Assembly: GCA_963790205.1 (NCBI GenBank) | Contig: CAWBNQ010000003.1 | Span: 352,001-416,000 of the forward strand | Direction: 5' to 3' | Source of the DNA: Nitrospirota bacterium | GTDB lineage: Bacteria > Nitrospirota > UBA9217 | DNA length: 64,000 bases | In this document: positions 56,869 through 59,522 of the stretch, one piece after another | Numbering within the stretch: position 1 is the first letter of the stretch | Layout: every line of letters starts with the position of its first letter | Notes under the pieces: generated by a model | What the model was told of the DNA's origin: nothing | The model's input: only the letters and a program-made list of their open reading frames with translations | Databases searched by the model: none | Made by a program: the position numbers and the translations under genes

Positions 56869-56904
56869 TGCCCATTTATTAATCATGCGCCTACAATTTC
56901 ATCT
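56869..56904 (+). promoter_or_regulatory. Tandem NtrC-like enhancer sites (copy 2)
   Basis: TGCCCATTTATTAATCA-TG-CGCCTACAATTTCATCT, 130 bp before sigma54 site. Confidence 0.7.
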
Positions 56905-56998
56905 CTCGTGAAGGAAGAGAAGGCCCTGCTGCCTGGTGGGTTATCAATTTTGCGCAATGAAATTAGTCGTTTTACCGGTTTTCTATTCCAGTCGAGCG

Positions 56999-57014
56999 TG
57001 GCACGGGCTTTGCT
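56999..57014 (+). promoter_or_regulatory. Sigma54 promoter (PII-SMR-Amt-PII operon)
   Basis: TGGCACGGGCTTTGCT. Confidence 0.88.
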
Positions 57015-57122
57015 TTAACTGATGTTGAGATGAAGAGAGAAGCGGTGGCAGTGATCGGGGCCTGCCGACGGTAAGGGACGCAAGTTCGTGGTTTTAAAAA
57101 ACGGAAGAAAAGGAGATTCATT

Positions 57123-57461
57123 ATGAAAAGGATCGAAGCGATTATACGTCCGGAGAAGGCTTCCGCGGTATGCGCCGCTTTGGACGACGCGGGCCATCCC
57201 GGTGTGACGCTCTCTCATGTCGAGGGCCAGGGAGATCAAAAAAAGTGGGTCAATCACGTCCGCGGCATATCATATAAAGTAGGCTTGCTGAGCAAAACGA
57301 GGGTGGAAGTAGTCGTAAAAGACGAAGACACGGACAAGATCATCAAAGCCATACGTGACGCCGCGTTGACCGGCGAGGTGGGCGACGGTAAGATCTTCGT
57401 CCATGATATGGCCAATGCCATACGGATAAGGACCAACGAAAGCGGCATAGCGGCACTATAA
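57123..57461 (+). CDS. PII-family nitrogen regulator, divergent T-loop
   Basis: [30 protein letters not shown]. Confidence 0.93.
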   Translation: MKRIEAIIRPEKASAVCAALDDAGHPGVTLSHVEGQGDQKKWVNHVRGISYKVGLLSKTRVEVVVKDEDTDKIIKAIRDAALTGEVGDGKIFVHDMANAIRIRTNESGIAAL

Positions 57462-57569
57462 ACGCGCTTCGTCGTGCCGGTAAGTTCTCCAGCACGATGA
57501 AACGATCTTTTGAAATAGGTATAATAAATAATAAAGAAAGGATTCCAGTTTTCTGAAGGAAATTCTCAT

Positions 57570-57899
57570 ATGACCTATCTTGCTTGGCTCATTTTCATCG
57601 CTGCGGCAGTTCTGGAGGTCGGCGGCGATGCCGTCGTCCGCAAGGGGCTTCGCGGAAGCGGCCTCATTATCATTATGATCGGTTTCGCCATGCTGGGCTG
57701 CTACGGCGTGGTGGTCAACATGGTGAAATGGGATTTTTCGAAAATGCTGGGAGTGTATGTCGCGATCTTTGCGCTTATCAGCATACTGTTCGGACGTTTC
57801 GTGTTCAAGGAAGCCGTTCCGGCCGCTACGTGGATAGGATTGACGGTTATTATCAGCGGCGGAATGATTATTCAGTTCGGGGACAAGATCAAGATATAG
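57570..57899 (+). CDS. Small 4-TM membrane protein, SMR/YnfA-like (DMT superfamily)
   Basis: 109 aa, four hydrophobic segments, Glu in TM1 (AAVLEVGGD), GVY.A, F.E. Confidence 0.7.
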   Translation: MTYLAWLIFIAAAVLEVGGDAVVRKGLRGSGLIIIMIGFAMLGCYGVVVNMVKWDFSKMLGVYVAIFALISILFGRFVFKEAVPAATWIGLTVIISGGMIIQFGDKIKI

Positions 57900-57915
57900 C
57901 GGCGAAGGATAAAGT

Positions 57916-59172
57916 ATGAACAGCTCAATAATTACTGTTATGGGGACGCTGATCTGCGCGTTTCTTGTTATTTTCATGCAGGCCGGTTTTGCCATGATGG
58001 AGACCGGGTTCACGAGGGCGAAGAACGCGGGCCATACCATGGCCATGACCATGATGGTGTTCGTTTTTGGCGTGCTCGGGTACTGGGTCTGCGGCTATGC
58101 GCTCCAGACGGGCGGCAAAGGATTTTTTCTTTCCGGGGCGGCCTCCGATGCTTCGATCATGGTGCTCTTCCTGTCCCAGGTGGTTTACCTGAACATCGCG
58201 GCCACCATACCGACGGGCGCAATGGCCGAGCGCTGGACCTTCAAGTCCTTTGTTGTGTACGGGTTCTTTATTGCCATGTTCGTATATCCGCTGTATGCGC
58301 ATTGGGTGTGGGGCGGAGGGTGGCTTGCTCAGCTCGGCGGGAGCCTCGGTTTGGGCCACGGGGTACTCGACTTCGCCGGTTCATCGGTTGTCCATATGGT
58401 CGGGGGCGTTGCCGGGCTTGCGGGCGCCCTCGTGCTCGGTCCGCGCATGGGGAAATACCGGACAAATGGAAACCCTACGGCAATTCCCGGACATCACATT
58501 CCGATGGCTGTCGTAGGGTGTCTGGTCCTTTTCTTCGGGTGGTTCGGGTTCAATGCGGGTCCTGCCATGGGTGGCGGCGTCCGGTTCGGCGTCATAGCGC
58601 TCAATACCATGCTTGCGGGCGTGGCGGCGGCCTTCTCGGCGATGTGCTACCTGTGGATCAAATACGGCAAGCCGGACCTTTCCCTGATCGCCAACGGACT
58701 GCTCGGAGGGCTCGTTGCCATTTCGGCGTCCTGCGCGTTCGTGAGTCCGCTCGGGGCGATTATGATAGGGTTTGTCGCCGGCGTGCTGTGTTGCGTGAGC
58801 GTCTTTTTTGTCGAACAAAAGCTGAAGGTGGACGATCCCGTGGGCGCGGTGTCCGTCCATGGCGCCTGCGGCGCCTGGGGCATGCTCGGCCTCGGGCTCT
58901 TTGCCGACGGCACCTATGGCGACGGACTGAACAATGTTCCCGGAGCGGTCAAAGGACTGTTTTACGGAGGCGGATCGCAGCTCACGGCACAAGCGATCGG
59001 TGTGGCCGTGAACCTCATCTTCATCTTCGGCGTGATGTTCCTATTCTTCAAAGTGCTGGGCAGGGTCATCCCGATGCGCGTATCGGAAGAAGTGGAGTTT
59101 GAGGGCCTCGACCAGAGCGAAGTGGCGGTTACCGCCTACCCCGACTTCAGCATCACGAAGACTCGGAGATAA
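57916..59172 (+). CDS. Amt-family transporter with divergent substrate-recruitment residues
   Basis: [46 protein letters not shown]. Confidence 0.93.
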
Positions 59173-59180
59173 GGGATATC

Positions 59181-59522
59181 GTGACAAAGATCGAAGCGAT
59201 CATAAAACCGTCCAAGCTTGACGAGATCAAGGATGCCTTGATCGCTCTCGGTGTCCATGGCATGACCGTGACCCCGGAAACAAAAGGGTTCGGCAGGCAA
59301 AAAGGGCATGTCGAGATCTATCATGATGCGGAAATAGAGATTTCCTTCATGCCGAAGGTAAAAATAGAAGTAGTGGTGGGGAACGGGCTGACGGAAGCGG
59401 TCATAACCACCATTCAAGGAAAAACAAGAACCGGTAAGATCGGAGACGGTAAGATCTTCATCACGAAGCTCGAAGAGATCGTCAGGATCAGGACCGGCGA
59501 AAGGGGCGAAAGAGCGATATAA
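59181..59522 (+). CDS. GlnK-like PII protein lacking R47/Y51
   Basis: [34 protein letters not shown]. Confidence 0.93.

Follow-up and report, generated by a model that had tools for sequence, protein, structure and literature searches.

What is the function of an operon in which a small YnfA-like membrane protein stands between a PII protein and an ammonium channel (Amt), and in which the channel and both PII proteins depart from their canonical relatives? The locus lies in a 64,000-nucleotide (nt) stretch of a Nitrospirota genome (contig CAWBNQ010000003.1, positions 352,001–416,000; hereafter the window) from an assembly, G000, that is 98.3% complete, and the nearest relatives of the window are Nitrospirota. 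On the plus strand, a −24/−12 sigma54 motif (56999–57014, a perfect match to TGGCAC-N5-TTGC) precedes PII-1 (57123–57461, PF00543), the YnfA-like gene of 109 residues (57570–57899), an amt1-type Amt paralogue (57916–59172; TIGR00836 at 373.9 bits versus a cut-off of 343.3, PF00909 at 367 bits) and PII-2 (59181–59522, PII family PF00543), with 16 nt between the stop codon of the YnfA-like gene and the ATG of amt. The four co-oriented genes and the motif of the sigma54 promoter described in a sequence-only reading of this DNA are thus present, as is the canonical pair that it took as an internal control, a sigma54-glnK-amtB unit at 61551–63427 on the same strand (genes at 61630–63427, with amtB at 62075–63427, 2.1 kb downstream of the operon). 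The account we favour, with a probability slightly short of even, is that the operon encodes an auxiliary and likely unplugged amt1-type ammonium channel together with a likely NH4+/K+ carrier of small multidrug resistance (SMR) fold, and that it probably answers to nitrogen starvation through sigma54.

The best structural matches of the window Amt (6eu6 and 8qj3) place it nearest to amt1-type proteins. As the sequence-only reading had noticed, it deviates at functional residues: the alignment reveals F103S, F107Y and S219P (E. coli numbering, with W212–S219 and H318 taken from the alignment and F103 and F107 placed by matching the F-Q-x-x-F motif to 6eu6). W148, D160, F215 and the intact pore histidine dyad H168 and H318 are retained, so that only W148 remains of the S1 site (F107/W148/S219) that is found in canonical AmtB-type channels. 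The protein is shorter as well, through loss of some 110 residues at the N-terminus and of a 31-residue loop that follows the second transmembrane helix (TM2). In a tree of 75 near-full-length Amts, from which partial open reading frames (ORFs) were left out, the window Amt nests in a clade of 44 sequences (SH-aLRT 99; all trees here are quick trees with SH-aLRT support only), every one of which sits behind a YnfA-like gene. W148, D160, H168, D310 and H318 are invariant in 44/44, and changes occur at F107 in 36, at S219 in 30 and at F103 in 28 members; harsher replacements are W212S in 3, F215Y/L in 6, N216T in 7 and S219R/H/Q in 7. Conversely, F107, S219, F215, W212 and N216 are unchanged in all 31 control Amts (11 basal amt1-type and 20 AmtB-type). 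In E. coli AmtB, activity is maintained or increased in the F107A and S219A mutants but lost in D160A and F215A, according to the available parts of two studies (PMC3355798, PMC10433425). As the altered residues are dispensable in E. coli and the needed ones are retained, the changes do not imply a new substrate. By analogy with these mutants, an altered and likely weaker ammonium recruitment site is suggested, and the window Amt is predicted from its residues to be a lower-affinity ammonium channel.

A matching change is seen in PII-2, which nests among Amt-linked canonical (GlnK-type) PIIs in the tree and has intact ATP and 2-oxoglutarate motifs, but carries R47H, G48D, Y51I and a one-residue insertion. 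Throughout its set (n = 16), R38, K58, K90, R101 and R103 are kept in 16/16, whereas R47 and Y51 are kept in 1/16. The loss of R47 follows the state of the channel: of the 19 PIIs encoded behind S219P-type Amts, 18 are without it, and all 9 behind Amts with intact F107 and S219 retain it, counts that come from related rather than independent genomes and include some near-duplicate rows. This distribution supports a non-standard form of PII gating, as far as residues can indicate it. In E. coli GlnK, R47 blocks the pore, and the R47A and Y51A variants still bind AmtB, as stated in the accessible part of the report (PMC4274968). Since PII-2 is without R47, while R47A and Y51A GlnK still dock, PII-2 likely docks on the Amt without plugging its pore. 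Second copies of a PII-2 without R47 and Y51 occur in three loci (L003, L007 and L013), 1–3 kb downstream and away from any Amt.

PII-1 deviates elsewhere, so that the earlier claim of two divergent PII proteins stands, with the 36–41 segment altered in PII-1 and R47/G48/Y51 in PII-2. The changes in PII-1 are F36Q, R38D and G41K, and it retains Q39, R47, Y51, K58, K90, R101 and R103; in its set (n = 15), Y51, K58, K90, R101 and R103 are kept in 15/15 and R47 in 14/15 (one canonical PII row was mis-anchored in this residue comparison). In the tree, PII-1 groups with the free PIIs that follow permeases of APC fold bearing a fused PII domain (SH-aLRT 93), and a PII-1-type gene stands behind 11/11 such APC-PII fusion loci, at least one pair of which represents the same contig. 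It is found in only 6/53 loci that have the kinase directly upstream. To judge by tree and gene order, PII-1 is a descendant of the partner of the APC-PII fusion and an optional member of the operon; it may serve the upstream APC permease or mix with PII-2. Some PII-1 copies are without K90: a strongly degenerate PII-1 with K90E is located directly 5′ of the YnfA-like gene at L016:7534–7998, L017:7578–7910 and L029:7586–7921.

The YnfA-like protein passes PF02694 (UPF0060/YnfA) narrowly, with 26.4 bits versus a cut-off of 24.9, and fails NCBIfam PRK02237 (34.8 versus 114 bits); 1986 of 1999 candidates, at 90% clustering, are homologues. The predicted structure (pLDDT 84.6) has four helices with Glu16 in TM1, in agreement with the sequence-only reading of a four-helix SMR/YnfA-like protein with a TM1 glutamate. 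Its best fold match is Gdx-Clo (8vxu; Z 10.5, root-mean-square deviation 3.5 over 101 aligned residues; next match Z 8.3), a Z that falls within the range the tool deems uncertain for helical bundles, and an SMR fold is supported at the level of the model. A PDB sequence search with the protein gave nothing better than E 0.009, and an Atlas search returned UPF0060 clusters only. Averaged over 44 homologues, the K+R bias is 1.5, which would allow dual topology; the predicted two-copy complex scored a median of 0.29, under the mark of 0.42. In a diverse set of 54 homologues, 52 retain E16, 51 D20, 50 R24 and 53 Y63, and G19 is conserved too. SMR-fold proteins move organic cations via the TM1 glutamate, and the Tyr, Trp and GXG features of their binding site and fulcrum are described in the portion of the literature available to us (PMC9574504). 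These features of Gdx and EmrE (the Tyr60 switch, the binding-site Trp63 and the GXG fulcrum) are all lacking in the YnfA-like protein: position 60 is L, M, I or F in 54/54 homologues and never Tyr, and in a profile alignment to EmrE residues 61–105, Y63 falls on W63 and A65/F67 on G65/G67.

The genes that surround this family point to its cargo. In addition to its nitrogen contexts, the YnfA-like gene is found within or next to kdp operons in L031, L035, L044, L142 and L186 and directly before a TMEM175 gene in L185, and it adjoins CPA1- or NhaA-type antiporter genes in L029, L038, L120 and L144 (CPA1 in L029, L038 and L144). Genome G108 has two copies, the first at kdpD and the second in a porin/APC-PII operon. 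The potassium contexts are scattered over a weakly supported tree of the YnfA-like proteins (in which the row for L146 was skipped). NH4+ and K+ are alike in size and charge. The SMR protein Gdx can export Cs+, as reported in the part of the source available (PMC13064478). Given the potassium and nitrogen contexts, the likeness of the two ions and the export of Cs+ by Gdx, a small monovalent cation would be the most economical cargo, as we infer from context and residues. In Smithella-like loci (L041:2396–4642, L135 and L137), a GAF-PtsP (EI-Ntr-type) gene follows the YnfA-like gene.

Whether the four genes form a conserved unit was examined in loci that carry a homologue of the small gene (n = 45 at the species level); metagenome loci (n = 80) show the same layouts. 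The YnfA-like gene is immediately before an Amt in 27/45 loci, whereas the full four-gene set is found in only 3/45. What is conserved is therefore a core of the YnfA-like gene followed by Amt, rather than the order of all four genes. Within 5 kb of the small gene there is an Amt in 34 of the loci, a PII in 27, an APC permease in 22, a PP2C-kinase in 22, a porin in 11, a K+ or other cation transporter in 10, DUF1646 in 8 and nif genes in 3. Synteny, the earlier check, thus held for the co-occurrence of the small gene with Amt, PII, APC and kinase but not for the order of the four genes. Amt is absent between the YnfA-like gene and PII-2 in L005, L062, L078 and L149, and an obligatory partnership between Amt and the SMR-like protein is unlikely, the small gene being without an adjacent Amt in 18/45 loci. 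The family is patchy: it was found in 25/251 Nitrospirota genomes, in two other phyla in 5/301 and 1/251 genomes, and in a fourth, with a wider profile, in 25/401 genomes, where the sequences assign 7 to this subfamily and 18 to the classic YnfA type. The DUF1646 membrane protein recurs in nitrogen clusters (L005, L006, L010, L024, L070, L091, L110, L119, L123 and L149), sometimes with its gene immediately 3′ of the YnfA-like gene. Literature searches found no published work on a YnfA-like-Amt-PII module.

The operon genes are under purifying selection that is moderately relaxed. In codon models, the ratio of non-synonymous to synonymous substitution rates (dN/dS) comes to 0.14 for both the Amt and the small gene and is slightly higher for PII-2 (0.16) and PII-1 (0.19), compared with 0.06 for each of AmtB, canonical PII, APC and kinase. 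Genome-matched values are 0.12 for the Amt and 0.13 for the small gene versus 0.06 for the kinase, and 0.127 for the Amt versus 0.075 for AmtB, with basal amt1 at 0.078; the pairwise Nei-Gojobori estimate narrows the gap (0.119 versus 0.105 for APC and 0.086 for the kinase). A ratio near 1 had been proposed as the sign of a decaying paralogue, and the values are far below it: dN/dS of 0.12–0.19 rules out neutral decay. The reading frame is intact in 18/18 close Amt genes tested.

Regulation is indicated by three perfect sigma54 motifs in the window, before the porin gene (51420–51434, plus strand), the four-gene operon (56999) and glnK (61551). Matches with at most one mismatch number 7 versus 3.96 expected, which by itself is not above chance. 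Across homologous loci, a sigma54 motif lies 40–168 nt 5′ of the PII-1/YnfA-like unit in 40/125, and some of the remaining loci have little upstream sequence or would be read through from the kinase. NtrC-like sites were seen as 2-mismatch matches only, about 177 nt upstream of two of the promoters. From these motifs, the operon is likely sigma54-driven and induced by nitrogen starvation. A terminator-like hairpin, a pattern match only, marks the operon end at 59566–59591 (plus strand) and faces a convergent rubrerythrin gene. The genome encodes GlnD, nifH with nif-like ORFs beside it, glnA, kdpA/kdpC and a Kup-like gene, and the organism is a likely diazotroph. A third, canonical AmtB-type gene begins at 63684 on the plus strand and runs off the window at 64000; its key motifs are intact in the genome copy. 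A glnB-glnA pair is located about 4 kb upstream of the kdp operon (G000:C1:830821–840839, L057).

Under the account that we favour, nitrogen limitation would induce the operon alongside the two canonical amtB genes and the nif genes, and the altered Amt would pass NH4+/NH3. Docking of PII-2 on this channel would depend solely on 2-oxoglutarate and ATP/ADP, would escape control by GlnD and would leave the pore open. The YnfA-like protein would dimerise in the manner of SMR transporters, with a small inorganic cation bound by E16 and D20, which lie one turn of the helix apart, and such binding would explain the reuse of the gene in both ammonium and potassium uptake operons. Several observations weigh against this account. 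No nitrogen or potassium gene was among the scanned neighbours in at least 13 loci (L034, L037, L040, L042, L107, L127, L136, L146, L182–L184, L190 and L191), the CPA1 and Kup-like matches are below their family cut-offs, leaving the ion uncertain, and nitrogen and potassium genes cluster anyway in G000, so that a mixed context is possible without a shared substrate. The Tyr switch that is described as essential in the tested SMR subtypes is absent. As for the channel, S219P and F103S are not among the E. coli mutants in the available parts of the cited work, and a proline may distort the helix; the harsher changes in some clade members (W212, F215, N216 and S219R/H/Q) also fit a loss of transport. 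Moreover, the account does not explain why a genome with two intact AmtBs would need a low-affinity channel under a starvation promoter. A more far-reaching version, which we consider doubtful, takes the subfamily with E16, D20 and R24 to be an unrecognised type of SMR-fold NH4+/K+ transporter, recruited to kdp/TMEM175 and to amt/PII/nif operons and paired here with a naturally unplugged Amt whose PII lost R47/Y51 as the channel lost its outer site.

The same residues could be read in terms of signalling. In line with an Amt used as a sensor or scaffold, one of two proposals of the sequence-only reading, the Amt may no longer be a bulk transporter but a membrane anchor or sensor that sequesters PII-2, or heterotrimers of PII-1 and PII-2, and so tunes, for example, nitrogenase or the APC/kinase unit. 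The stripped periplasmic face, set beside a conserved cytoplasmic C-terminal region and pore dyad, would fit, as would the complementary losses of PII-1 and PII-2 in a probable diazotroph and the loss of the plug residue R47 behind these Amts, given that the GlnK variants R47A and Y51A still dock in the available part of that study (PMC4274968). We nevertheless judge it unlikely, for many altered-Amt loci with ample downstream sequence are without a PII (e.g. L011, L012, L018, L022, L023, L025 and L027), there is no fused signalling domain, and the twin histidines and D160 are invariant in 44/44, as transport would require. A search of G000 for DraT gave no match, but its control was likewise silent, and the result is uninformative. 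The genes might instead be a redundant paralogue set in slow loss under relaxed selection, with the YnfA-like gene as a passenger of nutrient-uptake clusters, an explanation that we rate no higher. It would account for a dN/dS about twice that of the controls, for the replacement of S219 by different residues in different lineages (P, R, H and Q), for the scarcity of PII-1 (6/53 kinase-upstream loci) and its loss of K90 in L016, L017 and L029, and for the missing Amt in L005, L062, L078 and L149 in a family present in 25/251 Nitrospirota genomes. It is less easily reconciled with ratios that are all far below 1 and intact frames in 18/18 close Amts, with S219P and F107Y being common to the close clade, with the operon's own conserved sigma54 site, or with the retention of E16, D20, R24 and Y63 in 50–53 of 54 homologues.

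The other proposal of the sequence-only reading was a nitrogen-starvation module for a different small nitrogenous cation. In such a module, an organic cation such as methylamine, guanidine, ethanolamine or a polyamine would be imported by the porin and the APC permease, and the SMR-fold protein would export the excess. SMR-fold proteins do carry organic cations via the TM1 glutamate in the part of the source available (PMC9574504), APC permeases carry amino acids and amines, with AdiC the top fold match of the window APC, and a widened Amt vestibule could admit methylammonium. The expectation was not borne out, however, as the Amt keeps the residues needed for ammonium, the small protein lacks the aromatic residues of the EmrE and YnfA binding sites, and no guanidine, ethanolamine, urea or trimethylamine pathway was matched among the families searched. 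Searches of G000 with positive controls found no EutB, arginase family, urease, DUF1989, MttB or guanidine-I riboswitch (RF00442), and for urea carboxylase gave only biotin-carboxylase-level matches, none above the cut-off. No Rfam riboswitch was found in the window, guanidine-II and -III not being searched genome-wide, and no amine-catabolic gene was found among the neighbours scanned, methylamine oxidation genes (GmaS/Mgs, Mau and MtmB) not being searched. The descent of PII-1, which ties it to the APC-PII fusion and not to this Amt, also counts against an organic cation as the business of the operon, and this explanation appears distinctly improbable.

The upstream genes, behind a separate sigma54 motif, are part of one cluster with the four-gene operon. 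They encode, on the plus strand, a BBP2-family outer-membrane porin (51563–52771; PF07642, 251 bits), an APC-fold permease whose relatives bear a fused C-terminal PII domain (52832–54733; PF13520) and a PP2C phosphatase-Ser/Thr kinase fusion with a hydrophobic C-terminal segment (55015–56814; PF00481/PF13672 and PF00069). The fold of the APC protein matches AdiC (top), CAT4, ApcT, NKCC1 and KimA, all at Z 32–36, and does not resolve its cargo. Among its best 120 homologues, most carry both APC and PII domains; fusions are found at L021:968–2842, L043:8363–10222 and L045:5374–7341, and in L062, L117, L125, L128, L135, L143 and L145. The fused domain has a shortened T-loop without Y51, a PII-1-type gene always follows it, and the two could trimerise. 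The window APC also contains an insert, some 110 residues long and predicted to be beta-rich (model residues 205–310; window 53450–53760), that its PII-fused relatives lack. The BBP2 porin (window, L005, L024, L029 and L038) is followed, depending on the genome, by an APC with the kinase, by an APC-PII fusion or by canonical amt1 and PII genes, a hint that the roles of this APC and Amt are the same. The PP2C-kinase fusion travels with the unfused APC and was seen in the gene lists of 0/11 APC-PII fusion loci, suggesting that phosphorylation is an alternative to PII fusion in the control of the APC. Between the two amt operons, the minus strand (59627–61294) encodes a Fur/PerR-like regulator, a 151-residue ORF with two cysteine pairs and no Pfam match, and rubrerythrin. 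Further upstream, a cluster at 42599–48082 (molybdopterin oxidoreductase, ferredoxin, NrfD, ActD and cytochrome c) resembles that of alternative complex III, with an NrfD frame that appears truncated at its start, and seven tRNA genes are clustered at 14811–15869.

If the favoured account is true, a function would be assigned to a large, unstudied branch of UPF0060/YnfA (1986 matches at 90% clustering), and an inorganic-cation carrier would join the four known SMR subtypes, linking NH4+ and K+ handling in one protein of 109 residues. In the Amt clade, natural variation at the S1 site amounts to a mutational series, matched by loss of the GlnK plug, and the disputed functions of S1 and GlnK gating can be tested in it directly. 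If the relaxed-paralogue explanation is true, the locus is an ordinary accessory ammonium transporter cluster.

Among known systems, the closest in layout is glnK-amtB of E. coli (AmtB-GlnK; PDB 2ns1, 2nuu), which shares the sigma54-type nitrogen operon (likely in the window), the residues D160, W148, F215, H168 and H318 and a linked PII. The window operon differs in an Amt that is amt1-type and carries F103S/F107Y/S219P, in a PII-2 without R47/Y51, and in the extra YnfA-like gene and second, unrelated PII. The Amt sensors, namely the Amt-histidine kinase Ks-Amt5 and the Mep2 transceptor, likewise place a non-standard Amt beside signalling proteins, but the window Amt is without a fused signalling domain, and the separate Ser/Thr kinase travels with the APC. 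The uncharacterised APC-PII fusion with its dedicated second PII has the same APC family, the same clade of free PII as PII-1 and the same porin; here, however, the APC is unfused and followed by the PP2C-kinase, and PII-1 is in the next operon. The small protein resembles Gdx and EmrE (SMR, PF00893) in fold, central TM1 glutamate and small charge bias, although there is no PF00893 match at E ≤ 0.1 and no guanidine riboswitch. With YnfA/UPF0060 (PF02694; Shigella flexneri YnfA, PMC9295541), it shares the four helices, the TM1 glutamate with a glycine at +3, and Tyr63, whereas its identity to four classic YnfA-type sequences is 21–26%, Y60 is replaced by L/M, the GGV motif is absent, and D20, R24 and a context of nutrient-uptake genes are additional to it.

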